Notes: generated from the letters alone by a model not told the origin. A DNA stretch of 64,000 nt from a virus (IMGVR_UViG_3300028837_000875:1-64000); one strand, 5' to 3'; counted from the first letter of the stretch, positions 8,721-42,559 are shown. Numbers and translations are program-made.

Positions 8721-8984
8721 ATGACACACTATGCTCTTTCATCAAACAAGCCATGCAAGCTCTGTGGAAAAACCCACGGATACATCACTCATGCACATCG
8801 TATAATAATTGCCGATGATAATTCTAAGTTTTTTATGGAGCAGTTCTGCAAGAAGCATTCTGCTTCTGAAGTAGTAGAAGTTGATTTGCCATTTCTTATC
8901 AAGAAACGAATTCTTCTGATTGATATTCTAAGTGTGTTGAAGAAAATAGTTCCTTTGGAAAACAAAAATGGTTCAAGTGGCTAA
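8721..8984 (+). CDS. hypothetical protein
   Basis: 87 aa, CKLC..H. Confidence 0.55.
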   Translation: MTHYALSSNKPCKLCGKTHGYITHAHRIIIADDNSKFFMEQFCKKHSASEVVEVDLPFLIKKRILLIDILSVLKKIVPLENKNGSSG

Positions 8985-11037
8985 GAAGAAAAAACTTAAA
9001 CTAAAGAAGCTTAAAAAGAAACAAGCTCCTTGGCTTATTAGAAAGGGACAAAATCTTCGTAAGCACTTGACAGATAAGAATCAATGTCACTGGCATAGTG
9101 ATGATGGCGTGCGTTGTAAGAATTTCGCAAAGAAAGGAAAGCAATACTGTCGGCATCACGAGGGAAAAGAGACTTACACAACATTAGTTGATTTTGATTT
9201 ATGGGAAGAGATTCAGAAAGCTGGAATCAAGAAGAATGAAAAGCTTTTCTCACTCAATGAATATCCTCAGCTTATGGCAATATATAGAGATAGACATCCA
9301 GAAAAAGTGATAATGAAAGCGGCTCAGTGCGGAGTCACAGAATACGGAACTTTGTTTGGTGAGTTCTTTTTGAAGTTACATCGCGGTACATCTGTTATCT
9401 ATACTCTGCCTTCCAGAAGTTTGGCCTCTTCAATTTCTAAGCAGCGTATTGATTCAATGCTTAACGAGAATGAGCGAGTTTTTCTCAACGTAAATAAAAA
9501 GGGAAATGTTCAGGTCAAATATGATTCTATCTTTGAGAAGCAAATCAAAAACGGCTATCTTTTCTTGCAAGGAACTTGGAAGGAAGGACAAGCCATATCT
9601 GTTCCAGGCGATGTCTTGATACATGACGAAATAGACTTTTGTAAAGGTGATATTCTCAAGAAGTTTAGAAGCAGAATAGGAAATTCAGATTATAAATGGA
9701 TAGTTCAATTTTCAACTCCTACATATCCTGAGTATGGTATTCACAAAGAATTCCTAATGACTGACCAACATCATTGGTGGTACAAGTGTGAGCACTGTGG
9801 ACATGTATTTATGCTTTGTTGTTCATGGCCTGACATTCTTCATTTTGATGAAGAAACAGGAAAACCGTTTTTCGGTTGCGTAAGTTGTCATAAAGAAATT
9901 GCAAGAAAAGAAGGATGGTGGAAGCCGCAAAATCCTTTAAGTTCTAAGCGTGGTTATCATGTAACTAAACTTGCGTCTCCTCGAGTTAGTGCTTCTCAAT
10001 TAGTTGATGCTCAAGAAGAATACAAAACAGAAAAAGATTTCTGGAATTTTGAATTAGGTCTACCATATGCAGGAAGCGAGGACAGAATAACTATAGCAGA
10101 TTTGGAAGCTTGCGAAGATGGAAGATACCATCTCATGGTTCGTGAGCGTATGACTTGTGCAGGAGTAGACCAAGGTGGCAAAGCGATATACGTTGTAGTA
10201 GTGAAGCCAGGCAGAGACAAAGACAGAATCATTTATGCTGACCACATTACTGGATTAACTTGCTGGGCGGAGTTGGCAGTCATAATAAATCAACTTGGAG
10301 TAATGCGTTGTGTTGTAGACGCTATGCCGGATACATTCAAGGCAGGAGAGTTTCAAAGATTGTTCAAGCGAAAAGTTTATTTGGCTTATTATAATGAACG
10401 TTCAAAGGAAGGTGTGAACTGGCAACCGACCAAAGGAATTGTCACTCTTAATCGAAGTACAACTCTTGATATGACAATGGAAAAAATTCGTAGAAGAAAA
10501 GTTATAATTCCAGTTTCTGATAAATTGATTGCTTTCAAAAAACACATGACGTCTTTTGTCAGAGTGAAAGAAGTTGATGACCAAACAGGTGAAATCAGAT
10601 ATGCTTATAAGAAAGTCAGAGAGGACCATTTCGGCCACGCGTATAACTATGCAAATGTGGCAGCATTGAAAATGGATATATCAAGTTTTCAAGTACACTC
10701 TCCATCAGAAAGAAAAAAGGATGCACGCAGTATAGCTGTTGGAAACTACGGAGATGAAATTATAAATCATCTTGCAGGACTGCTGCTTGATAATATTATC
10801 TCAATAGATATGCTTATGAATTATCGAATGCAAAAGACTAATGGAAAGTTTGTAAGTGAAATGGATTTGAGTTCTGATTTTAAACAGATAATGAGTACAC
10901 TTGAACTTAAGTATACTGTGTCTAATCTTATAACTTCAATTCAGAATCTTGAAATTGTGAAAGATAGAATCAAAATAATTCAGGAAGCAAGACGACAAAA
11001 GGCAATTGAAGGAGAAAGCAATGGAAGGGAAGAATGA
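8968..11037 (+). CDS. terminase large subunit (GpA-like)
   Basis: MKAAQCGVTE Walker A variant, LIHDEID Walker B, STPT, CEHC/CVSC, GVDQG nuclease, DHFGHA. Confidence 0.9.
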   Translation: MVQVAKKKKLKLKKLKKKQAPWLIRKGQNLRKHLTDKNQCHWHSDDGVRCKNFAKKGKQYCRHHEGKETYTTLVDFDLWEEIQKAGIKKNEKLFSLNEYPQLMAIYRDRHPEKVIMKAAQCGVTEYGTLFGEFFLKLHRGTSVIYTLPSRSLASSISKQRIDSMLNENERVFLNVNKKGNVQVKYDSIFEKQIKNGYLFLQGTWKEGQAISVPGDVLIHDEIDFCKGDILKKFRSRIGNSDYKWIVQFSTPTYPEYGIHKEFLMTDQHHWWYKCEHCGHVFMLCCSWPDILHFDEETGKPFFGCVSCHKEIARKEGWWKPQNPLSSKRGYHVTKLASPRVSASQLVDAQEEYKTEKDFWNFELGLPYAGSEDRITIADLEACEDGRYHLMVRERMTCAGVDQGGKAIYVVVVKPGRDKDRIIYADHITGLTCWAELAVIINQLGVMRCVVDAMPDTFKAGEFQRLFKRKVYLAYYNERSKEGVNWQPTKGIVTLNRSTTLDMTMEKIRRRKVIIPVSDKLIAFKKHMTSFVRVKEVDDQTGEIRYAYKKVREDHFGHAYNYANVAALKMDISSFQVHSPSERKKDARSIAVGNYGDEIINHLAGLLLDNIISIDMLMNYRMQKTNGKFVSEMDLSSDFKQIMSTLELKYTVSNLITSIQNLEIVKDRIKIIQEARRQKAIEGESNGREE

Positions 11038-12460
11038 CGCGCCGCGTCAAGCTGGACGGATGGAAATCCAGCTTATATCCCGAGACAGAACTCAACTTCA
11101 GGTGAGTGATTCTCGACGTGAGTATGTAGAGCGGGATTCAAAGAAAGGACTGAGATACCGAAGATACTATTTGGAAACTGAGTGGCAGATTATCCAGACA
11201 AAACTTTTGTTTTACGACATTTGGAAAAAACATCCTTGGATTCGTGCTCTTACAAACAAGATTGCTAATATTGCTATTACTGTTGGATGGTTCATTGACT
11301 ACACTGGAGCTGGCAAAGCTACTCCAGAAGAAAAGAAACGCATTGAAAACTTTTTCATGTATCCAAATTATCAAGAATCATTTTCAGATATACTCTGGAA
11401 AACAATAGTGCAATTGAAAATATTTGCCGAATCGTTTTGGGAAATGGTTAAGAGCCGAAAAGGTTATCCGATAGATTTTTATATTCTTGATGGAGCTGTC
11501 AGAGTTTGTCTTGATGAACACGGCAATCCAGGGAGTCCGGCATACGTTCAGAGAGTATTCAACGACACGGCTGAATTTGAATATGACGAAGTAATTTATT
11601 TTAAGTTTCCTGACCCCATAGGAAAAGTTCATCCATCTTCAGAACTCGAAGCTCTTGAACTTACTGTTCTTACTGACGTTTATGCAATGGCTCTGAACAA
11701 GACTACTTTTACACAAGGTGTCAGAAAAGGGAAAGCGTTTATTTTCCCAGCGGATACTGGCCCTGAACAGATGAAGCGCAACAGGGAGCAAATAGATAAT
11801 CTTCACTCAGGAATAATTGGTTCGTATTCTGCTTTCGTTGCTCTCGAAGGAGAATGTACAGTTCAGGACCTTAAGCTTACTGAAGAGAAAATGGAAGCTA
11901 AAGACCTGCGTGAATATCTCCGCGAAGAAATGGCAGCAGTAGTTGGAACACCACTTTCAAAAGTTGGAGTCAACGCTGTTGATGTAAAGGAATCTCAATA
12001 TGTCGACAAATCATTTTGGCAGGAGGAAGTGCAGCCACTAATTGATTTGGTTGCAAACACAATAAATCGTTATCTTGATTTGCTTGGCATATATGATTAT
12101 AGATTCAAGTTCAAGAAATTTCCGATTAGAGATTTGAAAGAGACGGCAAGATTGATTGACGTGCTCAAGAAGCACGGTGCAATTTCAACGGATGAAGTAA
12201 GAGAAATGGTTGGCTTAGATACTTTGAATACAGCGTCGAGCAAGAAGCCGTTTCTTGTTACGCGTGATGGCACTATTATTTTCATTGATGAAATTGAGAA
12301 AGAGAAAGCAAATATTGATGCTGTAAAGAAAGAAGAAAAAGCAAGTGCGTTTCCATTCCAAATGGGCCGTCGTAGGATTGCACGCAAAGGCGCGACACTT
12401 CCTGCTACTGAAGAGACTGCCGCTGAAGAGGAGGAAGCGGCTCCGGACCCTTTTCTTTAA
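11021..12460 (+). CDS. portal protein
   Basis: follows terminase; ESFWEMV, DEVIYFK, GAISTDEVREMVGL motifs. Confidence 0.9.
   Translation: MEGKNDAPRQAGRMEIQLISRDRTQLQVSDSRREYVERDSKKGLRYRRYYLETEWQIIQTKLLFYDIWKKHPWIRALTNKIANIAITVGWFIDYTGAGKATPEEKKRIENFFMYPNYQESFSDILWKTIVQLKIFAESFWEMVKSRKGYPIDFYILDGAVRVCLDEHGNPGSPAYVQRVFNDTAEFEYDEVIYFKFPDPIGKVHPSSELEALELTVLTDVYAMALNKTTFTQGVRKGKAFIFPADTGPEQMKRNREQIDNLHSGIIGSYSAFVALEGECTVQDLKLTEEKMEAKDLREYLREEMAAVVGTPLSKVGVNAVDVKESQYVDKSFWQEEVQPLIDLVANTINRYLDLLGIYDYRFKFKKFPIRDLKETARLIDVLKKHGAISTDEVREMVGLDTLNTASSKKPFLVTRDGTIIFIDEIEKEKANIDAVKKEEKASAFPFQMGRRRIARKGATLPATEETAAEEEEAAPDPFL
12448..12454 (+). other. candidate -1 ribosomal frameshift site (C CCT TTT) joining portal to MuF frame
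   Basis: X XXY YYZ heptamer in portal frame two codons before its stop; -1 frame is open into 12607..14187. Confidence 0.6.
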
Positions 12461-12606: not shown

Positions 12607-14187
12607 ATGATTAAGTCAGATGAAAATCTTGTTGCTGATTTCGATAGAATCAAAAAGAAAACAATCAAGACATGGTTGGAAGTTGCACGAAAGAAGAAAC
12701 TTCAAACTGGTGCGGAGGAAGCTAATATAGTCATTGATACGTCTGTATCTGGAAATGAACTTACAGTTTCGGTTGTCCAAGGACACAAAGCAGGATTTCT
12801 TTATGGCTTTGGTGAAGTAGCATCTGGGCTTGGCTTCAAGCCAGGAGATGAAGGCAGAGTTGGAAAGTTTGATTTTGATTACATGTCTCCTGAGACTTTC
12901 AATCGAGCAAAGCAATCGGCAAGAAGAATTTCAAACAAGACTATTGACGGCATGATGAAAGGCGATGCTAAAAAGTTTGCAAGACGCAATGTGCGTAACA
13001 TTGTCAAGGAAGGAATCAGAACAGGAAAGAGTGATACTGATATTGCAAACGAGATAGGTCAGTTCTTTGATGATTCAAAGTATTGGAAAGCGGCAGAGAT
13101 AACGAGAACTGAAATTCCTCTTGCTTATAACTATGGCCGTATTGATGCTGCTCGAAAAGATGGATTAACTAAAGCACGAATATATCTTGGAGGACGTCCT
13201 TGTAACTGGTGCATTGATAACCATCTTGATGTCAGGACGTTGGACCAAGCCGAAGCATATATGAATGCGCATCATCCAAACAATGATTGCACGGTTGTTC
13301 CACTTATTGACTTTGATTATTATGGCATTGAGCCACCTGAAGGATATTATGAAGGCGATGAAGGTCCGCTTGAGCCTCCAATAGCTAAGCCTGGAAAACC
13401 AAAGGCACCTCCAAAGCTTATACCTCCAGTAATTCCTAAAGTCCCGCCTCCTGCCGTTGCTCCTGCGGTTCCTGCTATGCCTCCTAAAGCTCCACCAGTT
13501 ACTATTGACCCTAAGAAAGTTGGTGACCTTCCAAAAGAAACTTCAGCTAAAAGAGCAGAGCGAAGAATAAAAGAGTTTGAAGAAAAGAGTAAAATTACAG
13601 CTCCTAATAAAAGCTCTCAAGAATTCATCAATGAAACGAAAGAACGTTTTGGGATTCAGTTTAATAGTGGAAAATATTACAAGCAGGATAGAGTTCAAGC
13701 TTTTTTAGATTCGTTGGAAAATTTACACAAAAATCTGGATACGAAAATACGCAAAAGATTGTATAAAGGTAATTTGCTAACAGTACAATCAGCAACACCA
13801 GGCAATGAAATTGGTTCAAGAGTGCTTGGTGATTACTGGGAAAAAGGACGTTTATTAAGAGTCAATGAAAAATGCAGATTGACAAGAGAGATAACTAAAT
13901 GGATGCCTAAAGCTCGTCCAAATCTATTGAGAGAATCTTACGAGTGGGTTTCAACGCATGAATATGGACATCATATTTATCAGACTGGACTAACAAAATC
14001 CATCAAACAAAAATGGTTTGGAATTTGGTCAACTGAACCGAAAAGAATTACTATGTACGCAAGCAAAAATGCGGCAGAAGGATTCTGTGAATCACTTGGA
14101 GCTTATATGCGAAGTCCTAAAGCTCTAAAGCAAACTTCTCCAGAGGCATACGAGTTCATTAAAAAATACATAATGGCAGGAGGATAA
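12607..14187 (+). CDS. MuF/SPP1 gp7 head morphogenesis protein with Pro-rich linker and C-terminal zincin metallopeptidase
   Basis: AAEITRTE..AYNYG, C..C, HHPNNDC (MuF); HEYGHH and YASKNAAEGFCE (zincin); frame open upstream to 12427. Confidence 0.85.
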   Translation: MIKSDENLVADFDRIKKKTIKTWLEVARKKKLQTGAEEANIVIDTSVSGNELTVSVVQGHKAGFLYGFGEVASGLGFKPGDEGRVGKFDFDYMSPETFNRAKQSARRISNKTIDGMMKGDAKKFARRNVRNIVKEGIRTGKSDTDIANEIGQFFDDSKYWKAAEITRTEIPLAYNYGRIDAARKDGLTKARIYLGGRPCNWCIDNHLDVRTLDQAEAYMNAHHPNNDCTVVPLIDFDYYGIEPPEGYYEGDEGPLEPPIAKPGKPKAPPKLIPPVIPKVPPPAVAPAVPAMPPKAPPVTIDPKKVGDLPKETSAKRAERRIKEFEEKSKITAPNKSSQEFINETKERFGIQFNSGKYYKQDRVQAFLDSLENLHKNLDTKIRKRLYKGNLLTVQSATPGNEIGSRVLGDYWEKGRLLRVNEKCRLTREITKWMPKARPNLLRESYEWVSTHEYGHHIYQTGLTKSIKQKWFGIWSTEPKRITMYASKNAAEGFCESLGAYMRSPKALKQTSPEAYEFIKKYIMAGG

Positions 14188-14572: not shown

Positions 14573-15262
14573 ATGCCACCTAAGGGCTATAAACAACATG
14601 AGGAGACAAAAGAAAAAATAGCTGCTTGGAATAGAGGTAAGAAAAGAAGTACTCAGACCAAAGCAAAGCTATCAAAAGCTTTGAAAGAGAAATGGAAGGA
14701 TAAAGTTTATCGAAAGAAGTTGATTAAAAAAGCACAAGGACGGAAGTTGAGTACAGAGCATAAGAAAAAAATTTCTCAGTCTTTGAAAATAACAAGAGCA
14801 GAAAAGAAGTTTAGTTCTGAACGCAACAAGAAAGTTTCTAAAGGCTTGAAGCAATTTTGGGCAAGTCTTACATCTCAAGAAAAAACTGAACGCTTGAAAG
14901 GATTTATACAGGCGGGCGCAAGAGCAAGAGGATTTTTCAATACTAAAATAGAACAAATAACAGAGGCATTTCTTAAACGTATAAAAGTTGAGTATACAAA
15001 GCAGAAGATGTTTTGTTCTGGAAATAGAAGAGCAATTGGTGACTTCTATCTTCCAAAATTCAATTTGGTATTGGAGTGTGATGGAGAATATTGGCATTCA
15101 GTGTTAGAACAAAAACAAAAGGATAAAATGAAAGATAGATTTTATCATAGTCTTGGACTGAAAGTCATAAGACTAAGCGAAAAGGAAATCATTAACAATC
15201 TACGATATTCTTTTTTGAAAAAACTGCGATTGATTCTTGTGAAAAGAAAAGGAGTGGCCTAA
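14573..15262 (+). CDS. homing endonuclease (NUMOD3-like repeats + DUF559/Vsr-like nuclease)
   Basis: HEETKEKI / STEHKKKIS repeats; DFYLP..LVLECDGEYWH...DKMKD. Confidence 0.8.
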   Translation: MPPKGYKQHEETKEKIAAWNRGKKRSTQTKAKLSKALKEKWKDKVYRKKLIKKAQGRKLSTEHKKKISQSLKITRAEKKFSSERNKKVSKGLKQFWASLTSQEKTERLKGFIQAGARARGFFNTKIEQITEAFLKRIKVEYTKQKMFCSGNRRAIGDFYLPKFNLVLECDGEYWHSVLEQKQKDKMKDRFYHSLGLKVIRLSEKEIINNLRYSFLKKLRLILVKRKGVA

Positions 15263-18200
15263 TGGCTGAAGTTCCTAATATTGCTTCAATGGATTTTAAG
15301 AAAGTTGATGATGAAGTTTTATCCAGAAGTTTCAATACTGTCAATGCTTGGTATGCTTCAATCAAGCAAGGTAAAAAACTCAAACATTCTTTAGACACTA
15401 TTATTCGTTTGGGTGTGCAGATAATGACCGAGTTGTTGCGTAGAGGAAAAGTAACTTTTCATCCTGAAGAAATGAAACAGGTATCTCGTGAATTCTCTGC
15501 TAAGGTGCTTGATAAAATAGTAAAGCAGAAAGTAAACGTTGAGCCGCCTTACGGAGATTTGATAGCAGAAGGCAAAGCCAAAGGATTACTTCTTGGCGAG
15601 GATATCCCGCTTGATAAGATATATCTATTTGTGCAAGACGGAAAAGCTTTGGGATATGTTCGCTTTGGTGCAATGCCATCAATCGAGAGCAAGCCAGGTT
15701 CTGGAGCAGCGTTTGGAACTTACCATTATAAAATTGTTGGAGATGATTTTAAGAAGTATCAAAAGATTCATCGCGTATCGGATGAAGAAAAAGAGCAACT
15801 TTGGCCTAAGAATAAAATACTTTGGCTTTATCCGGTACGCGACTTTTTTCCATTAGATAAGCCTATTCAACTTTCAACAAATCTTGATACGACTCTGCCT
15901 GAAGGATTGAAGCCAGAAGATTTGACTCCTGATTATCTAAAGCAAATTAACAGCATGACGCTTGTCAAGATTCACGGCTGGTTGCATTCAGGATTCTTTC
16001 AAGCTCAGAAAAGAAAAGAAGCTATTGAAAGATGGGTAAATGCACATGCGTTTGTAGTAGATGAAATGATAAACAGAAAAATGGAACATCGTCCTTGGTC
16101 AGAGCTTGATGAATTCTCTAAACAATATCAGACTCATAAGTTTGAAAGAGCCATTGATTATCTGCAAGATTTTCTGATTCGTAAGCCTTATGCTTTGGCT
16201 GCTGGCTCTGTCTTTGTCTCAGGTGAAGGAAATGATTTGGATGTGGTAATAAGAGATGAAGAGAATCAGTATTTCAAAGAAGCTGTTCTTCACTTCATGT
16301 CTAAATCTAATCTTAAAGCTGATATGGTTTTTGGTGCTTGGACTTCATCTTTCACAAACAATGTTTCACTATATGATTATGGATTGACTCGAAATCCGAG
16401 AAGTGAAATGTTCCTCTCTAAGATAAAACTTCATGGACTTGATTTACAATTACCTTCGTTTGTAAATTCACAGCCAAGAGTGTTTATCAAACAGCGTGAT
16501 ACAAAGTTGCTTTTCTGGATAAGAGAAGATATAACAAAAGAAAGAGATGGAATTGTAGAGTTTAAAATCAAGCAGATGCTCCCGCTTTATTATGATGCTA
16601 AATTTGATTATGGACTTTATGTTCCATCAGATTATAAGCCGATATACTGGGATGTATATCTTAGAGAGCCAGAGCCTGAGATGATTACTATGTCTATTGT
16701 TCAGAGCAGACATGAAGTTAGACTTGCACGTGGTATAAAGATAATGAGATATTTTCAAACTATGAAGCCTGCAAAAGCAGCAAAGCCAGGAGAGCCGGCT
16801 ACGTTTGATTTCTATCTTGCTGTTTTTAAGTCGAGAGATTTCCCTGTGTTTTTGCAAAAAAAATACGACGGAGCTAATCTTGAAATTCATCGTTCTGGAA
16901 ATGACGTAAAGATATGGACTGAGGACGGAGTTGATGTCACACATCGTTTGCCAGGAACTGTTGAAGAAATAAAGAAACTCAATCATAATAAGTTTGCTGC
17001 TCTTGCTGAGGCAGAATTTTGGAAAGGAAAGTTTCATTATCCGAGAGAAAGAGCCGCTGGTTATCTCATGTCAAAAGATAAGCCAGATGATTCTAATATC
17101 GTTTTGAATTTTTATGATGTAGTTGCTACTGGGTCTCATGGAGACGTATCAGGAAAGAACATGATTGAAAGAGATAAAGTTCTTGATACGTTTGATTTCA
17201 AGCAGTCCACAATTGGTGTGCCTGATTTGAAATATAGATTGAATCGTGCTCCAAGCAAGATGGCAAAGAACGCAAGTGAATTGAAAACAAAATCAGAAGA
17301 GTTGAGATTTGCTGCTGGCTCAGAAGGAATAGTTGCTAAGCCGTTTTGGGGAGTCTATGATTTATCTGGTAGAAGAAAAGAACAAATCAAATTTCATAAC
17401 TCAGTCATCTTTGTTGCAAGAGTGTTGAAGCGAAATCAAACAAAGACGCCCGGAGTGTATACTTATAAATGGGCTATAAAATCTGGACCGCTTAAAGCAC
17501 GAGAGCAACACGCTGTGATGATAAACAATGAAGAATATATTCATGGTGGCAATACTGATTCTACTGATTTCAAATTGAGCAAAGGTGATTTGATTGTCAT
17601 CGAAGCAGAAACATTCAATAAAGTTTATTATGAGAAAGATGATACTGTTAAAGTTTCTGCTTGGGTTCCTCGCGTGCTTGAACAAAAAGCAGATAAGGGA
17701 GTTGATTCAGTAAAGAGTGTGATGAAAGAAGCTCAGAACAATCGTGTATTGACAATCAAGAAAGTTCACAAAGATGGCTCTGAATCTTATCTTCCACAAG
17801 AAGCTTTCAAATTGAATACTGAACATACAGCTTTATTGCGCCTATCTGCTCTTGAGGAAGAACATGGTATATTACCATTGATTGAGAGCTTAGAGGACAT
17901 TAGGACCGAAGAGGAGGCCATTTTACAGAGGTATTCAAGGGATATTCCTGTGCCGTCCGATATCAAAGCAAAAGAGAGCAAGTGGAATTCAATCTCATTA
18001 GATGAACTTGAAAAAATGAATCCAAGTAGTTTGCCGAAAGGATTTTTTGTTATTGTCGACCATTATCGTGGTAAGAGTGTACATGGGGATTTAAGAGGCA
18101 AGGAAAATGGTACGGCAGATGGCTGGACAATATCAAATGCTTGGGCAGGAAAGATAAAAGAGCCAGTTGATTCTTTCAGTGAAGCTCAAGCGATTCAATC

Positions 18201-19269
18201 AGATAAATCTGTTTGGAAATTCAATCCTGATATGCCACCAACTAAACATGTGTTTGCTACTCCAAAGCCTCCGCATCCTTTAGGCTGGTTGACTCAAGTC
18301 AAGAACATTCATAAGGAAGGAGAAGTTGGAGCCACTCGTTTTGAAGAAGGATTGTTTTATGGAAAAGACTGGGGCTTACGCTATCACGGTGCAGGAGGCA
18401 AAGGCTCTCATGGAACTTCAAAGCCTTGGTTCTTTGAGTATTTTCTGCGCGGAAGAAAATTCAATTGCAAGATAGTTTTCAGATTGCTTGAAGCTCCAAA
18501 AGGTGGAGGCAGAAAAGTAGAGAAAGGAATTTTCTGGCAAGCTTGGATTGCTAAAGACCAGTTTCCATATATCCTCACTCGCTCAGCAAGAACAAAAAGA
18601 GATTGGCTACCGCCACATGGGCGTTCTGCTATTCCTCCTGAATTAGAAGTTCTAATTCCAAATGAATTGAAATGGTGGAATCTTCCCAAAGGTCATTCAA
18701 AAGAAAAGATGCTCGACACAATTGACAAAGCTTATAATCACTTAATTGATGAAGGATGGATTGCAGCAAGAAAACTTCCAGTGCGCGAAGAACAAACGCA
18801 ATCTTTGGAAGGAAAGAAAGTTCCTTTCATACTTCAATATGAGTGGTGGAAAGGTCCTGAAGTAATTAGAGGCATGAGGCAGAACAAATTTTTCATCAAG
18901 CTTCAGGACAATTCAAATGTTCAAGCAATATCTTTCCTTGAGAAAAAGCCAGTGTTGACAACAGAAGATGCTGGCATTGCAGCAACAATGCACAAAGTTT
19001 CTCACGGACCAAAACGTGGAATGAAGCCAATAGACTGGATGCGATTTGAAGGAGAGATAGGTCCGGGTGAGCCTGGACATCCTTTAGAAATAAAAAAATT
19101 GCCTCTACATGTAGAAATTATGGACAGAGGTAGTGTTCAAGTTATTGAGGATGGAGAGCTTTTCAAATCACTTCAGTTTGATGGCAAACTCTTAAAGGGA
19201 TATTACGTTATGAGACGTGAAGGTCCAGATTCCAAACTATGGGTTTGGCAGAAGTCAAAGCTTCCATAA
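15262..19269 (+). CDS. 1335-aa multidomain ATP-dependent DNA ligase protein
   Basis: ligase motif I QKKYDG, FYDV, EGIVAK; LigD phosphoesterase-like DHYRGKSVHGDLR and C-terminal MDRG..LKGYYVMRR; NTase-like GS..NDLD. Confidence 0.8.
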   Translation: MAEVPNIASMDFKKVDDEVLSRSFNTVNAWYASIKQGKKLKHSLDTIIRLGVQIMTELLRRGKVTFHPEEMKQVSREFSAKVLDKIVKQKVNVEPPYGDLIAEGKAKGLLLGEDIPLDKIYLFVQDGKALGYVRFGAMPSIESKPGSGAAFGTYHYKIVGDDFKKYQKIHRVSDEEKEQLWPKNKILWLYPVRDFFPLDKPIQLSTNLDTTLPEGLKPEDLTPDYLKQINSMTLVKIHGWLHSGFFQAQKRKEAIERWVNAHAFVVDEMINRKMEHRPWSELDEFSKQYQTHKFERAIDYLQDFLIRKPYALAAGSVFVSGEGNDLDVVIRDEENQYFKEAVLHFMSKSNLKADMVFGAWTSSFTNNVSLYDYGLTRNPRSEMFLSKIKLHGLDLQLPSFVNSQPRVFIKQRDTKLLFWIREDITKERDGIVEFKIKQMLPLYYDAKFDYGLYVPSDYKPIYWDVYLREPEPEMITMSIVQSRHEVRLARGIKIMRYFQTMKPAKAAKPGEPATFDFYLAVFKSRDFPVFLQKKYDGANLEIHRSGNDVKIWTEDGVDVTHRLPGTVEEIKKLNHNKFAALAEAEFWKGKFHYPRERAAGYLMSKDKPDDSNIVLNFYDVVATGSHGDVSGKNMIERDKVLDTFDFKQSTIGVPDLKYRLNRAPSKMAKNASELKTKSEELRFAAGSEGIVAKPFWGVYDLSGRRKEQIKFHNSVIFVARVLKRNQTKTPGVYTYKWAIKSGPLKAREQHAVMINNEEYIHGGNTDSTDFKLSKGDLIVIEAETFNKVYYEKDDTVKVSAWVPRVLEQKADKGVDSVKSVMKEAQNNRVLTIKKVHKDGSESYLPQEAFKLNTEHTALLRLSALEEEHGILPLIESLEDIRTEEEAILQRYSRDIPVPSDIKAKESKWNSISLDELEKMNPSSLPKGFFVIVDHYRGKSVHGDLRGKENGTADGWTISNAWAGKIKEPVDSFSEAQAIQSDKSVWKFNPDMPPTKHVFATPKPPHPLGWLTQVKNIHKEGEVGATRFEEGLFYGKDWGLRYHGAGGKGSHGTSKPWFFEYFLRGRKFNCKIVFRLLEAPKGGGRKVEKGIFWQAWIAKDQFPYILTRSARTKRDWLPPHGRSAIPPELEVLIPNELKWWNLPKGHSKEKMLDTIDKAYNHLIDEGWIAARKLPVREEQTQSLEGKKVPFILQYEWWKGPEVIRGMRQNKFFIKLQDNSNVQAISFLEKKPVLTTEDAGIAATMHKVSHGPKRGMKPIDWMRFEGEIGPGEPGHPLEIKKLPLHVEIMDRGSVQVIEDGELFKSLQFDGKLLKGYYVMRREGPDSKLWVWQKSKLP

Positions 19270-19378: not shown

Positions 19379-19573
19379 TTGACAGAAACAACTAAAGAGA
19401 AAACAGAAATAGAATTTAAAGATGAACAAGGAAAAGTTTGTAAAGTTGAAGTGAAAGAAATTTCAATTCCTGAAAATTTCGATTCTATACTTATCAATTT
19501 TAAGACAAATCAAGGCACTGTGAAGCGTTATCTTCTCAGGCGAACAAAAAGAGACAGATTGGTGCTGACATAA
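19379..19573 (+). CDS. small protein with HemP-like C-terminus
   Basis: ends RYLLRRTKRDRLVLT; TTG start after GAGGA. Confidence 0.5.
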   Translation: MTETTKEKTEIEFKDEQGKVCKVEVKEISIPENFDSILINFKTNQGTVKRYLLRRTKRDRLVLT

Positions 19574-19642
19574 TCTGGTTAGCTCTTTAGCGAATACAAG
19601 TAGTGACGAGCAACCCTAAAGTTTTTGACAAGGAGGTTGCTC

Positions 19643-21034
19643 GTGACCAAGACAGCCGCTAAACCAGCTTTGATTTTAAGACGCAAACTTGCGTTAAAAG
19701 TTGGTGTACACAACGGCATCAATTATTCAGAGGATGAAGTACGCAAGCTTTATCTTCGGTACCAGCAACTCGAGTCCAAGCCTTTTGAGCAACTCTCAAT
19801 GGAGGAAGTACACGCCTTCGATTTATTCAAAGGTGGAGATGAGGACCACAAAGACTCAACTGGGACTTGGGTCGGAAGCGTCAAAGATGTGTACTGGGAT
19901 GATACGTCAAAAGGATTTGGATTTGACAAGTGGAATATCGTAGATGAAGATTTTGCGAGAAAGATTGAATTTCAAAAGTCACGCGGTAAAGCTTCGTTTG
20001 GAGTTTCTCCGCGTTTGAATGTGTTGCGCAAAGGAACAGATGCAACGGATATACTTCCGAAGAATATTGGCATCGTCTTGAATCCAGCAGGAGGCGAGGA
20101 TTTGATGCTGAGCAGAGATTCGGACAATGCTGATTATGAATTAAGGGAAGATATAATTCAAGAGTTGACACTGTCAGAACAAGAGTCCATTCAAAGAGGA
20201 GGAGAATTGAACATGGACGAGAAGCAGATTGCGGAAGCTCTCGGTAAAGTTGGCGAAGCGATTGAAGGAATCAATACTAGGCTTGATAAAGTTGAGAATG
20301 CAAAGAGAGAAGCAGAATTAAAAGCTAAAGAAGATGAAATGAAACTCAAATGCGAGGCTCTTGAAGCCGAAAAAGTAAAGCTTGAAACTGAGCTGGCCAA
20401 GAAGAAAGAGGAAGAGGAAAAGATGCAGGCCGGCAAAGGTAAAGGCAAGGACAAAGAAGATGAAGAAAAAATGAGTGATGAAGAAAAAGCAGCACTCGCC
20501 AAGAAGAAAGAGGAAGAGGAAAAGATGCAGGCAGGTCCAGGCAAAGACAAGAAGTACAAGTATTACGGTGCCGCGTCTGCCAGGGATTCTCTCCTGAAGA
20601 AATTCGCTGTCACTCCGGACCTTCGTCTCATGGACGAGCAGTCCATCAATCGCGTTGCCGAGGACATCGTAAACGCGGCTAAAATTTTCGATGCAACTTT
20701 CACGCTTGAGAAAGCACAGAAAGGCATCGAGGAACTTCAGGCAATTCTTTTGAATCTGCCTTCAAACGCGCAGGAAGAGAAAGCACTCATGGAGCACGTA
20801 GAGGAAACTCTTTCGAGCGTAAGCCAGCAGATTGTAGGCAAACTTGATGATAAATTGAATTCGGGTTCAAGTCAGGGCAGAAGAAAAGGTCTCGTCCTTG
20901 GTGATGAAGAGGGAAGAGCAGACGAAACTCTTTCTGGAAAAGGAAATTCCGGCAATCAGAATCAGCCGGTCACCAAGCAGGATGTATTGAATGACATTTC
21001 TTCGAGCCTTTGCAAAGGACTCGGAATCAAGTAG
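19643..21034 (+). CDS. prohead protease/scaffold protein
   Basis: directly upstream of capsid; N-terminal GVHNG..DH..WVG..GVS protease-like domain, charged coiled-coil C-terminus; AGGAGGT RBS. Confidence 0.75.
   Translation: MTKTAAKPALILRRKLALKVGVHNGINYSEDEVRKLYLRYQQLESKPFEQLSMEEVHAFDLFKGGDEDHKDSTGTWVGSVKDVYWDDTSKGFGFDKWNIVDEDFARKIEFQKSRGKASFGVSPRLNVLRKGTDATDILPKNIGIVLNPAGGEDLMLSRDSDNADYELREDIIQELTLSEQESIQRGGELNMDEKQIAEALGKVGEAIEGINTRLDKVENAKREAELKAKEDEMKLKCEALEAEKVKLETELAKKKEEEEKMQAGKGKGKDKEDEEKMSDEEKAALAKKKEEEEKMQAGPGKDKKYKYYGAASARDSLLKKFAVTPDLRLMDEQSINRVAEDIVNAAKIFDATFTLEKAQKGIEELQAILLNLPSNAQEEKALMEHVEETLSSVSQQIVGKLDDKLNSGSSQGRRKGLVLGDEEGRADETLSGKGNSGNQNQPVTKQDVLNDISSSLCKGLGIK
20213..21034 (+). 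CDS. nested in-frame scaffold protein (internal start)
   Basis: AGAGGAGGAG RBS before in-frame ATG 20213. Confidence 0.6.
   Translation: MDEKQIAEALGKVGEAIEGINTRLDKVENAKREAELKAKEDEMKLKCEALEAEKVKLETELAKKKEEEEKMQAGKGKGKDKEDEEKMSDEEKAALAKKKEEEEKMQAGPGKDKKYKYYGAASARDSLLKKFAVTPDLRLMDEQSINRVAEDIVNAAKIFDATFTLEKAQKGIEELQAILLNLPSNAQEEKALMEHVEETLSSVSQQIVGKLDDKLNSGSSQGRRKGLVLGDEEGRADETLSGKGNSGNQNQPVTKQDVLNDISSSLCKGLGIK
20396..20532 (+). repeat. ~35-bp direct repeat in scaffold gene
   Basis: GCCAAGAAGAAAGAGGAAGAGGAAAAGATGCAGGC twice (AKKKEEEEKMQAG). Confidence 0.8.
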
Positions 21035-21079: not shown

Positions 21080-22414
21080 GTGAACTCGATGTGGGATTTG
21101 ATTCAACAGCGGGCTTCGGCAGAACTTCGCGGAGTTCGGCAGGAGCTTTCACTGGCTCTTGATACGACTACTGGTGGAGCACTTTCGCCAGAGTCTCTTG
21201 AGCCAAAGATTGTTGAGTTAGTCCGCAAGCTATCTCCGCTGGTAGCTGGACTGACAGTTATTCAGGCAGACGGAAAGACTCATGAGTACAATGAGAGAAG
21301 CGCACTTCCGTCCGCTGCATTCGAAGGCGAGAAAGCTGTAACTGGAACTTCGCAGTCTACTTATACACGTAGGCCAACTCCTCTGAAGATAATCAGAGCA
21401 AGGGGTGGAGTCACAGGATTCCAGCAGGCAGCGTCAAGGAAGTTCGTAAATTCTTATGTTAAAGAAATCGCTGGAGCCGCTCAGGCAATGGCGTGGGGAA
21501 TGGAATTTGGCGTAATGTGGGGCAACGCAACTTCGGACCAGTATCAGTACGATGGCCTCGACACGAAGATTATTACAAATAGACTTGAGAGAAATGCAGT
21601 TGTTACTCTCAGGCATCTTGATGAAGTCATTGATGCGATAATTGGAGTGGGTGCTCTCGACCCATCAAATATGGCGTTCTATCTGAGTCCTCAGATGCAC
21701 TCGAAAATTTCCTCGCTTGCTACTGAAGTGAGAAAAAATCTGCCAAGAATCAAGTACCCTGGCGGTCTGGAAATGGAGTCCTATCGAGAGATAGCACTCG
21801 TTGATTCTTCATTCTGCAAGCCCACCTCCCAGATGGGTGTAGTCACTGCTGCGGACGATGCCACGGTGGGTGGCTTAATTGCTGCTACTCAGTATCGTTA
21901 CAAAGTTGCTGCCGTTACTCGCTTCGGTGAACAGTGGGCAGGTGCAGAAGTAACGCACACCACAGGAGGCGGCATCACTTCAATCAAGCTTTCATTTACA
22001 GCTGTAGCCGATGCACAGTTGTACAAAGTGTACAGGACAATCGGAGGTGGCGGAGTAGGAACGGAAGTTCTTGCTGGAATATATGCTGCAAAGACGTACG
22101 ATGGTGATGGAACTATCACAGGTTACGTCGCCAGCATAATCGACATTGTTGCGGATGCTGCTCTGGGAACAGACACTCCGCTGGATTATACAAATCGTGA
22201 AGAGACAGTTTTCCTCGTGAATCGTGACCCTGAAATCTCGACAGAGATTGCGGGACTTATGAATGAGCAAGGAGAGAAAGTACAGAATCTGATTCAGATG
22301 CTTCCTCTTGCCAGGGTTAAGGACCAGGAAGAATTCTTGCTCCTGAGCTATCAGGCACTTATTTATAAGGGCGATATATTCAATGGTTTGCTGAGGCGCC
22401 TACGCACAGCGTAA
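21080..22414 (+). CDS. major capsid protein
   Basis: 444 aa; GGALSPESLE, EFGVMWGN..QYDGL; position after scaffold. Confidence 0.9.
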   Translation: MNSMWDLIQQRASAELRGVRQELSLALDTTTGGALSPESLEPKIVELVRKLSPLVAGLTVIQADGKTHEYNERSALPSAAFEGEKAVTGTSQSTYTRRPTPLKIIRARGGVTGFQQAASRKFVNSYVKEIAGAAQAMAWGMEFGVMWGNATSDQYQYDGLDTKIITNRLERNAVVTLRHLDEVIDAIIGVGALDPSNMAFYLSPQMHSKISSLATEVRKNLPRIKYPGGLEMESYREIALVDSSFCKPTSQMGVVTAADDATVGGLIAATQYRYKVAAVTRFGEQWAGAEVTHTTGGGITSIKLSFTAVADAQLYKVYRTIGGGGVGTEVLAGIYAAKTYDGDGTITGYVASIIDIVADAALGTDTPLDYTNREETVFLVNRDPEISTEIAGLMNEQGEKVQNLIQMLPLARVKDQEEFLLLSYQALIYKGDIFNGLLRRLRTA

Positions 22415-41134: not shown

Positions 41135-42559
41135 GTGACAAAGCTAATAGTACATTTGAGCGATTCGTATATTATCAAACTGAATCGGCTCTCGAAAGCC
41201 GAACAGCTCAATCTTCGTAACAGTTTTTCTAAGAAGAATCCTCAATATTATAAGCTCAGAGCATTAGGTTATTCAACTCAAGGCATCAAAGCGCACATAA
41301 ATCTTTTCGATATTCGTGGCGACAAAATCTGTCTACCTCGAGGAAATCGAGAGTTAATGGAAAATTTGCTGCCTGGCAAGGAGCTTGAATTTGTTGATGA
41401 ACGAATCACTATTCCTCTTAGTAAAGACATCAAATTTAGAAAAGGATTCAAGTTTTGGACAGAACAAGAGAAAGCAATTGAAAGCGCCATCATTCAAGAA
41501 CAAGGATTGATTCAAGGCGAGTGCGGTTCAGGCAAGACAGAAATATTACTAGGCATATTTGCTGAGCTTGGACAGCGCACGTTGGTGGTTGTTGATAAGC
41601 TTGAACTAATGAAGCAATGGGTAAAGAGAGTCAAGGCAAGATTCGAGAACGTCGAAGTAAAAACAATTGGTGCTGGAAAGTGGGGCGTTGGTGATTTGAC
41701 TATTGGCTCTCAGAAAACACTGTATAAGCACGCAAGCAAATTGCAGAACAAATTCGGAGCTATACTGTGTGATGAAGTACATCACTTTGCCGCGCCCACT
41801 TTCCAGGACCTCATTTCCAAGATGCCGGCAAGATATAGAATTGGAGCTACAGCGACTCTTGCAAGAAAGGACCGAAAGGAATTTTTAGTATACGCTGCAT
41901 TTGGAAATGTTCTGCACACCATAACAGATGCTGATTTGAAAGAAGAGGGAAAGATATTTGAAATTGAAATGATAGTTGTTCCAACTGATTTTGAGTGCTG
42001 TTCTTATATTGAAACTTATACTAACAAGATGACTAACGAAGAAGAAATTGTAAATTACAATTATCATGCTTTGCTTACTGAAATGAAAGTAGATGAACTC
42101 CGTAATCAACTACTTTTAGAGTTCATTGAAAAAGAGGTAAACAAAGGACATAAGTGTCTTGTGATGGCTGACCGCATAGCCCATTGCATTTATATTAGGA
42201 GACTCTTGCAAAAGCGCAATATTTCAACTGGGCTAATGGTTGGAGAAAAAGAATTCGAGCAAGAGCGAGAGCAAGCACCAGAGCAACTCAAAAACGGTAA
42301 GATTTCTTGCATCGTAGTTTCTCCTCTTGTCCAAGAAGGATTTGACTTGCCAGAACTCGATAGAGGATTCATCATAAATCCTTCAGCTAATAATGAAGGC
42401 AAGCTCAAGCAGCAAGCCGGAAGAATCAAGAGGATAGCTAAGGGAAAGAAGTCTGCAAAGGTTTATTATTTCTGGGATAAGAAAGTGCACGGCTTTCAAG
42501 CACACTTGAGGAAGATTCAAAAGCTCTTCCCGAAAACAAAGGTCTATGTTAAGCGATAA
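41135..42559 (+). CDS. superfamily 2 DEAD/DEAH-box helicase
   Basis: GECGSGKT, DEVHH, GATAT, EGFDLPELD, QQAGRI.R. Confidence 0.9.
   Translation: MTKLIVHLSDSYIIKLNRLSKAEQLNLRNSFSKKNPQYYKLRALGYSTQGIKAHINLFDIRGDKICLPRGNRELMENLLPGKELEFVDERITIPLSKDIKFRKGFKFWTEQEKAIESAIIQEQGLIQGECGSGKTEILLGIFAELGQRTLVVVDKLELMKQWVKRVKARFENVEVKTIGAGKWGVGDLTIGSQKTLYKHASKLQNKFGAILCDEVHHFAAPTFQDLISKMPARYRIGATATLARKDRKEFLVYAAFGNVLHTITDADLKEEGKIFEIEMIVVPTDFECCSYIETYTNKMTNEEEIVNYNYHALLTEMKVDELRNQLLLEFIEKEVNKGHKCLVMADRIAHCIYIRRLLQKRNISTGLMVGEKEFEQEREQAPEQLKNGKISCIVVSPLVQEGFDLPELDRGFIINPSANNEGKLKQQAGRIKRIAKGKKSAKVYYFWDKKVHGFQAHLRKIQKLFPKTKVYVKR

Follow-up and report, generated by a model that had tools for sequence, protein, structure and literature searches.

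In enzymatic make-up, the protein described here is closest to bacterial LigD, which combines 3'-phosphoesterase (PE), ligase (LIG) and polymerase (POL) domains, and to the stand-alone PE and ligase proteins of archaea (3p43, 3p4h and 5dmp). In genetic setting, it most resembles the polyvalent proteins of phages and conjugative elements, which are large, multidomain and encoded beside portal and MuF genes (PMC5512222). The protein, P0001, is specified by a giant open reading frame (ORF) in the sequence IMGVR_UViG_3300028837_000875:1-64000, referred to below as the window, a stretch of 64,000 nt from a viral contig in IMG/VR, 88,571 bp long (CheckV completeness about 78%), that occurs in sequencing runs of marine-sediment metagenomes, with no RNA run among those found. 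The initial annotation of the window had placed a giant ligase/phosphoesterase protein at nt 15262–19269 of the plus strand, and this frame is open throughout exactly as claimed, giving a single ORF of 4,008 nt and 1335 amino acids (aa). P0001 is probably a polyvalent, virion-associated protein built on a LigD-like repair core, and represents a large uncharacterised family without a cultured member.

P0001 has in common with LigD and the archaeal enzymes the same minimal ligase and a PE that keeps the H..HxDxR motif and, within the same polypeptide, a putative nucleotidyltransferase (NTase)-type domain. It differs in several respects. The AEP primase-polymerase domain (POL) of LigD is missing, as P0001 gives no Pfam or NCBIfam match to it and its N-terminal half folds as ASCH, helical and MNT-like domains, with a putative minimal NTase of the Pol-beta type in the place of POL. 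The PE is tandem-duplicated and lies C-terminal to the ligase; the first copy has one extra residue between the two histidines and the second is degenerate. Neither P0001 nor its separate segments matched Pfam LigD_N (PF13298), and the relatives scored 14–20 bits, under the cut-off of 31.1. Ku (PF02735) is absent from the 88.5-kb record, itself about 78% complete, and the gene belongs to a head module and carries ASCH and helical additions. Because there is no AEP domain, no Ku and no LigD_N match, and because the domain order is different and the PE duplicated, P0001 is LigD-like in its working but is not an orthologue or member of LigD.

The likeness to polyvalent proteins (PMC5512222) extends to the combination of disparate enzymes, the shuffling of domains among relatives, the DNA methylases and anti-defence domains that those relatives carry, a neighbouring zincin peptidase, and linkage or fusion to virion genes, by which delivery with the DNA is implied. 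In that paper, fusions of the portal/prohead-protease type are taken as evidence for capsid-internal, injected polyvalent proteins, and zincin and conflict-type domains are regarded as hallmarks; a text search of it gave neither LigD nor ASCH, and 'ligase' for RNA ligases only. Unlike the modifying or toxic activities of polyvalent proteins, however, the core of the P0001 family (NTase-like, ligase, PE-PE) is a repair module, and its fusions are to XkdF-like protease/scaffold and portal proteins, not to MuF. Two other viral systems are relevant. The protein AJP62006 of the uncultured archaeal virus ANMV-1 (866 aa, KP703175, annotated as 'ATP-dependent DNA ligase') has the same NTase-like, ligase and PE-PE core and also comes from marine sediment, but it has none of the N-terminal modules (helical, ASCH, His-rich), shares 25% identity with P0001 and belongs to an archaeal virus. 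Virions of African swine fever virus carry the ligase NP419L, the Pol X enzyme O174L and the AP endonuclease E296R (PMC12172490), and so offer a parallel of a particle-borne ATP-dependent ligase together with a minimal Pol-beta-family enzyme. That virus is eukaryotic, however, its proteins are separate and small, they follow a base-excision repair logic without PE domains, and there is no homology in gene organisation.

The C-terminal part of P0001 carries two PE folds. An AlphaFold2 (AF2) model of aa 915–1335, with a predicted local distance difference test (pLDDT) score of 89, consists of two beta-barrels and a helical linker (aa 1100–1185, nt 18559–18816; this and all other features of P0001 are on the plus strand), and the top seven Foldseek matches to it are all LigD phosphoesterase structures, each at a probability of 1.0. 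In line with this, an ESM Atlas search with the same segment led to viral LigD-PE clusters. The first fold, PE-1 (aa 924–1099, nt 18031–18558), is predicted to be active. It aligns by VIA structure comparison with the Methanocella PE 5dmp (Z 12.3; 130 aligned residues; root-mean-square deviation, rmsd, 2.9), and its predicted site consists of H934, H941, D943, R945, H1005 and W1009. The residues H934, H941, D943 and R945 align, with a one-residue insertion, to the H..HYDFR motif of CkoPE (3p43) in a HMMER comparison, and these four positions are at least 90% conserved in family alignment A1 and invariant in A4. The roles of the second-shell His-Pro-Leu..Tyr residues of PE domains are known from the LigD literature. 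At this position P0001 has H1005-P-L-G-W1009, while the family has Q in 46 members, E in 40 and H in 7, and the W is invariant.

The second fold, PE-2 (aa 1186–1335, nt 18817–19266), gave stronger structural matches by VIA: 3p43 at Z 15.2 (122 aligned residues, rmsd 2.3), MbaPE (3p4h) at 14.6 and the PE of Pseudomonas LigD (3n9d) at 13.2. A family profile also reaches the PDB chain of 3p43 with an E-value of 5.4e-9. The metal site of PE-2 is degenerate in P0001, with E1194, K1209, F1211 and K1213 at the corresponding positions, and the H-H-D residues are retained in about 20 of 95 relatives. As E, K, F and K occupy the metal-site positions, PE-2 of P0001 is probably a non-catalytic, nucleic-acid-binding module. 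A comparison by hhalign shows homology between the two folds (probability 97%, E 1e-10), which therefore arose by tandem duplication. The two LigD-type phosphoesterase-like regions proposed in the initial annotation thus both exist as predicted folds, but only one of them retains the catalytic histidines and aspartate.

Upstream of the PE folds is an ATP-dependent ligase, whose adenylation domain (aa 500–715, nt 16759–17406) belongs to Pfam PF01068. P0001 exceeds the cut-off of this family (35 bits against 26.2, E 1.5e-8, aa 521–711), and the isolated segment scores 38.1 bits; no other isolated segment of P0001 matched Pfam or NCBIfam. The ligase motifs are I (K534, D536, G537), III (E583, E585), IIIa (F617-Y618-D619), IV (E688-G689..K693) and V (K710), the second basic residue of motif V being H712 in P0001. 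The Arg of KxDGxR is replaced by Asn, a position at which 56 of 122 relatives have R and 25 have N. The motif residues themselves are kept in 111–122 of the 122 relatives, which argues for an active ligase under purifying selection. An OB-fold domain follows (aa 716–860, nt 17407–17841) and includes a motif VI-like sequence, W801-x-P803-R804...D811-K812, in which P803 is kept in 112 of the 122 relatives and W801 and R804 are also conserved, while the D-K pair is variable. Family profiles match archaeal DNA ligases (E 1e-26 to 5e-29) through the C-terminal OB domain, so that the ligase core recognised earlier from its KKYDG and EGIVAK motifs, together with the adjoining OB-like region, is borne out. 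The profile alignments omit the N-terminal DNA-binding domain of the archaeal enzymes, and the P0001 ligase therefore has only the minimal set of two domains, as has the LIG part of LigD.

The N-terminal half was modelled with AF2 as aa 1–520 from an alignment of 30 sequences, with a pLDDT of about 90 over residues 1–290. Residues 1–85 (nt 15262–15516) are helical (pLDDT above 90) and are followed by an ASCH (PUA-like) fold at aa 86–205 (nt 15517–15876). By VIA, the latter matches TTHA0113 (2dp9) at Z 12.1, ZmASCH of Zymomonas (5guq) at 10.2 and YqfB (9kyf) at 9.8, and family profile A2 matches 1wk2/2dp9 at E 2.6e-5, while a Pfam search with the ASCH region gave no match. The helical region and ASCH fold together form a module, N1, that is present in 48 of 152 family proteins. 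A PSTK-like match at aa 8–90 was set aside as it lies far under the cut-off (E 0.003). The next domain, at aa 217–300 (nt 15910–16161), is helical, rich in His and Glu and conserved in the family (consensus H..LH...NAH..V..E...R..EHR); its structural matches are only to generic helical hairpins (Z 6–7). The possibility that it is a HEPN-like partner of the NTase was dropped, as neither structure nor profile support was obtained. All three of these features, that is the helical N-terminus, the ASCH/PUA-like segment and the H..LH..H..VVDEM..R..EH domain, had been recognised in the initial annotation and stand.

A Pol-beta NTase-like domain had been proposed from the sequence GS..NDLD, and here the motif and the fold differ in strength. 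The hG[GS]-x9-13-DxD pattern is present at aa 303–375 (nt 16168–16386) as G315-S316...D325-L-D327, with G315, D325 and D327 invariant in 30 sequences, but the fold match to MNT/HI0073 is weak (Z 5.5–5.8, 21% identity over 68 residues, in a part of the model with a pLDDT of about 70–77). Pfam NTP_transf_2 was found only in a relative, P0112, at E 0.025. The domain is connected to the ligase by a low-confidence segment (aa 376–499, nt 16387–16758; pLDDT under 50), and an ESM Atlas search with aa 206–500 gave no usable match.

Relatives of P0001 were collected by an exhaustive phmmer search with aa 136–1335, and the counts given here are of representative proteins. There are 1060 at E ≤ 1e-3 and 292 at E ≤ 1e-30, with sizes from 350 to 2240 aa; a word-index search had found two relatives only, and a single C-terminal module used as query against genome contigs found none. 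The common core is (NTase-like)-ligase-PE-PE, to which variable additions are made. A Pfam survey of 28 relatives found 21 Pfam families. Among the additions, the most frequent is the D12 N6-adenine (Dam) methylase (18 of 28), and a C5 methylase occurs in two. XkdF-type Peptidase_S78_2 is present in eight of the 28 and the Mu gpI-like Mu-like_Pro in one, metallo-beta-lactamase in five and 2H phosphoesterase in two, and pyrimidine-dimer glycosylase, PAPS reductase and DUF6884 are also found. One relative's ligase domain scores with Pfam RNA_ligase as well. P0013, which is 40% identical to P0001, carries the Thoeris inhibitor Tad3 at its N-terminus. Capsid-borne anti-restriction is known from the DarB-type proteins of phage P1.

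LAGLIDADG domains (8) and inteins (4) lie, taken together, inside the proteins of eight of the 28 relatives. They interrupt P0013, P0139, P0005, P0011 and P0049, within the ligase domain in P0139 and up- or downstream of it in P0013, P0005 and P0011. Inteins tend to occupy conserved sites of indispensable genes. At some loci (L019–L022, L029, L036 and others) the giant protein is divided between two neighbouring ORFs (about 590 and 730 aa), which suggests that its halves could work as separate subunits. Among 50,697 deposited phage records, the ligase-plus-PE architecture was found in ANMV-1 only, the other matches covering the ligase domain alone. P0001 belongs to no PHROGs family, and megablast against deposited phages gave no match.

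A survey of synteny in related phages, proposed with the initial annotation as a check, was made with 62 IMG/VR loci retrieved by pattern search with alignment A3, in which ORFs were called and searched with iterated hidden Markov models (HMMs) derived from the head proteins of the window; the synteny results rest on these IMG/VR loci only. The placement between portal and protease/scaffold genes recurs. A portal gene could be recognised in 33 of the loci, and in 24 of these the giant gene lies zero to two genes 3' of it; in 16 of 21 loci the giant gene is directly 5' of a homologue of the 469-aa protein that follows P0001, an ORF of major capsid protein (MCP) size coming next. The 469-aa protein (nt 19625–21034, plus strand) itself has neither a direct Pfam nor a PHROG match. 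In its family alignment (A5), however, two of 14 members match XkdF Peptidase_S78_2 (E 1.5e-17), H75 is invariant and S128 is at least 90% conserved. Its C-terminal half is Glu/Lys-rich, and the only PDB proteins found with the family profile are coiled-coil ones. Judged from these sequence features, it reads as a protease-scaffold protein, with an XkdF-like putative prohead protease domain and a coiled-coil, scaffold-like tail.

Members of the family are also fused to head proteins. The HMM of the N-domain of the 469-aa family matches the last 120 or so residues of 18 giant-family proteins, and at three loci the giant protein and this N-domain are encoded in one ORF. At eight loci, the C-terminus of the portal protein is fused to a module homologous to the ASCH domain of P0001, or to ASCH and the helical region (aa 86–300). 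These fusions are at L021:4087-6405, L029:2997-5309, L023:4203-5861, L024:829-2418, L025:6062-7876, L026:2659-4251, L035:5222-6838 and L013:500-2152. The homology is supported by family HMM E-values of about 1e-43 to 1e-53 and by a direct BLASTP match to the protein of L026 (3e-6), and no earlier description of portal-ASCH fusions was found. A related arrangement was seen at L046:8441-11266, where an ORF of 942 aa combines PAPS-reductase, LigD-PE-like and XkdF-like protease-family N-domains; going by its domains, the head-linked scaffold is the same here but carries another cargo.

Taken as enzymology, P0001 is very probably a 3'-end-healing phosphoesterase joined to an ATP-dependent ligase for sealing, the binding and putative NTase modules being accessory. 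PE-1, of the Mn-type LigD family, would convert blocked 3' ends (3'-phosphate or 3'-ribonucleotide) into 3'-OH, and the minimal two-domain ligase, with K534 as its active-site residue, would then seal the 3'-OH/5'-phosphate nicks or annealed ends so produced. Nucleic-acid binding is the probable task of the degenerate PE-2 and of the ASCH domain, and the Pol-beta-like NTase may add or transfer nucleotides. Because of the conserved portal-protease/scaffold placement and the fusions in relatives, P0001 is further proposed to be delivered from the capsid. It would be incorporated close to the portal and scaffold of the procapsid, leave with the DNA and, at entry, seal cohesive ends or nicks and repair nuclease damage before phage genes are expressed. 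This full model of a capsid-delivered, 'polyvalent' repair protein we regard as evenly poised between right and wrong. A terminase large subunit (TerL) of the lambda gpA type goes together, in lambda-like phages, with cohesive ends, for which a ligase is required when the DNA enters. The TerL gene of the window is of this type, which suggests cohesive genome ends, and with these there would be a clear task at entry for a ligase carried in the virion.

Several observations weigh against this model. Fusions to XkdF, Mu gpI or portal are missing from P0001 itself, in which a capsid-targeting signal could not be recognised either, and HMMs detected neither a portal nor a protease gene beside the ANMV-1 core protein. 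No member of the family was found in cultured phages among the deposited records. On the enzymatic side, PE-2 has lost its metal site, the chemistry of PE-1 may differ from that of LigD PE, since most relatives have Q or E in place of the His of HPL, and the weakly matched NTase assignment is plausible but unproven. The lack of a capsid-protein fusion and the neighbourhood in ANMV-1 also fit another explanation, that P0001 is an ordinary intracellular ligase/repair enzyme (for Okazaki joining, recombination or the repair of nicks in concatemers) that is encoded in a late operon and never enters particles. A phage with its own DnaB, primase and Pol III alpha would need a ligase, and no further ligase, NAD-dependent enzymes included, was found in the 88.5-kb record, so that a replicative or recombination role would also explain the conservation of P0001; the record being about 78% complete, a second ligase or a Ku gene could be in the missing part. 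Against an intracellular role stand the position between portal and protease/scaffold genes, which is conserved over divergent viral loci, the repeated fusions of family modules to XkdF, Mu gpI and portal proteins, and the methylases and Tad3 of the relatives, which are typical of first-wave counter-defence proteins. We consider it unlikely, while giving it real weight.

The synteny and fusions that place P0001 in the head would agree equally with an enzyme of head assembly or packaging, situated at the portal or in the procapsid, where it heals and seals nicks or processes ends and is not ejected. Packaging motors are known to have difficulty with nicked DNA, and it is to the C-terminus of the portal that the ASCH module is fused. 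The Dam and C5 methylases and the Tad3 domain of relatives, on the other hand, make most sense in a newly infected cell, and a packaging-stage role appears improbable. Less probable again is a role like that of T4 Pnkp/Rnl, the repair of tRNA or mRNA that ribonuclease defences of the host have cleaved. RNA is the target of several ASCH proteins of known structure, including ZmASCH and the ac4C amidohydrolase YqfB, and the 2H phosphoesterases and the RNA_ligase score noted among the relatives point the same way. Yet the ligase core is far closer to DNA- than to RNA-ligase families and has an OB domain of the DNA-ligase type, the partner domains are mostly directed at DNA (DNA methylases, pyrimidine-dimer glycosylase), and the PE matches are all to DNA enzymes of the non-homologous end-joining type.

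The gene order around P0001 is TerL, portal, MuF-like protein, a 99-aa ORF, homing endonuclease, P0001, the XkdF-like 469-aa protein, MCP, head-tail adaptor and tape measure protein. TerL (nt 8968–11037) is followed on the plus strand by the portal gene (nt 11006–12460; Pfam PF04860, E 1e-27) and the MuF-like minor head protein gene (nt 12607–14187; PHROG head-morphogenesis family, E 5e-8). In Pfam the latter protein matches Phage_Mu_F (E 0.006) and ATLF (E 2e-4), both under the cut-off, the ATLF family being that of anthrax lethal-factor-like metallopeptidases. A zincin-type HEYGH motif is located C-terminally at aa 451, and the protein may act as a processor of head cargo proteins. The homing endonuclease gene (nt 14573–15262, plus strand; NUMOD3 and a DUF559/Vsr-like nuclease) is an insertion in the stretch from the MuF-like gene to P0001. 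P0001 had been described as lying between MuF and the prohead protease; the head-module site holds, but the 99-aa ORF and the homing endonuclease separate it from the MuF-like gene. On its 3' side is a gap of 355 nt that contains an ORF of 64 aa (nt 19379–19573). For the 469-aa protein, a GTG at nt 19643 behind an AAGGAGG site is a likelier start than the TTG at nt 19625. The MCP gene (nt 21080–22414, plus strand) matches phrog_212 (E 8e-17), and the head-tail adaptor and tape measure genes lie downstream of it.

The start of P0001 is preceded by an AAGGAG ribosome-binding site, and its ATG overlaps the stop codon of the homing endonuclease gene as TAATG, by which its translation appears to be coupled to that of the upstream gene. 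Over the stretch that begins with TerL and closes with the MCP gene, no terminator-like sites were predicted on the plus strand. Together, the overlap and the uninterrupted module fit expression with the head genes, in agreement with the late expression first suggested. The distance to the replication genes, put at about 22 kb, is also correct. The replication/nucleotide module (nt 41135–63998, plus strand) begins downstream at nt 41135 and encodes an SF2 helicase, DnaB, a DnaG-type primase and Pol III alpha, the last running past the end of the window, as well as DUF3150, an AAA ATPase, a dUTPase_2-domain protein, ThyX and a weak radical-SAM match. No tRNA genes were found in the 64-kb window. 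An archaeal host was considered owing to ANMV-1 and rejected; because DnaB, the DnaG-type primase and Pol III alpha are of bacterial type, the virus is taken to be a bacteriophage and not an archaeal virus.

Phage proteins that are injected to protect or express the incoming genome include the Dar proteins of P1, gp2 and IPI of T4, and the virion RNA polymerase (vRNAP) of N4. A literature search brought up no phage for which a ligase or end-repair enzyme is described as carried in the capsid. Even if P0001 is not packaged, a family of about 1060 clusters that is absent from cultured phages presents DNA-repair enzymology with a new, compact architecture of ligase and tandem PE, possibly of use as a reagent, and the recurrent portal and XkdF-like fusions make the targeting of cargo to capsids accessible to experiment. 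If it is delivered with the DNA, it would represent a new class of counter-defence, one that repairs rather than prevents the damage done by restriction enzymes, RecBCD and other nucleases, and it would make circularisation of the genome independent of the host ligase. For the family as a whole, we tentatively suggest, at somewhat less than even confidence, that a widespread group of uncultivated tailed viruses (about 1000 sequence clusters) packages a LigD-like machine in the capsid. Modules linked to the portal or to the protease/scaffold would anchor this machine, and after injection together with the genome it would circularise the viral DNA and repair nuclease damage to it before its genes are expressed.

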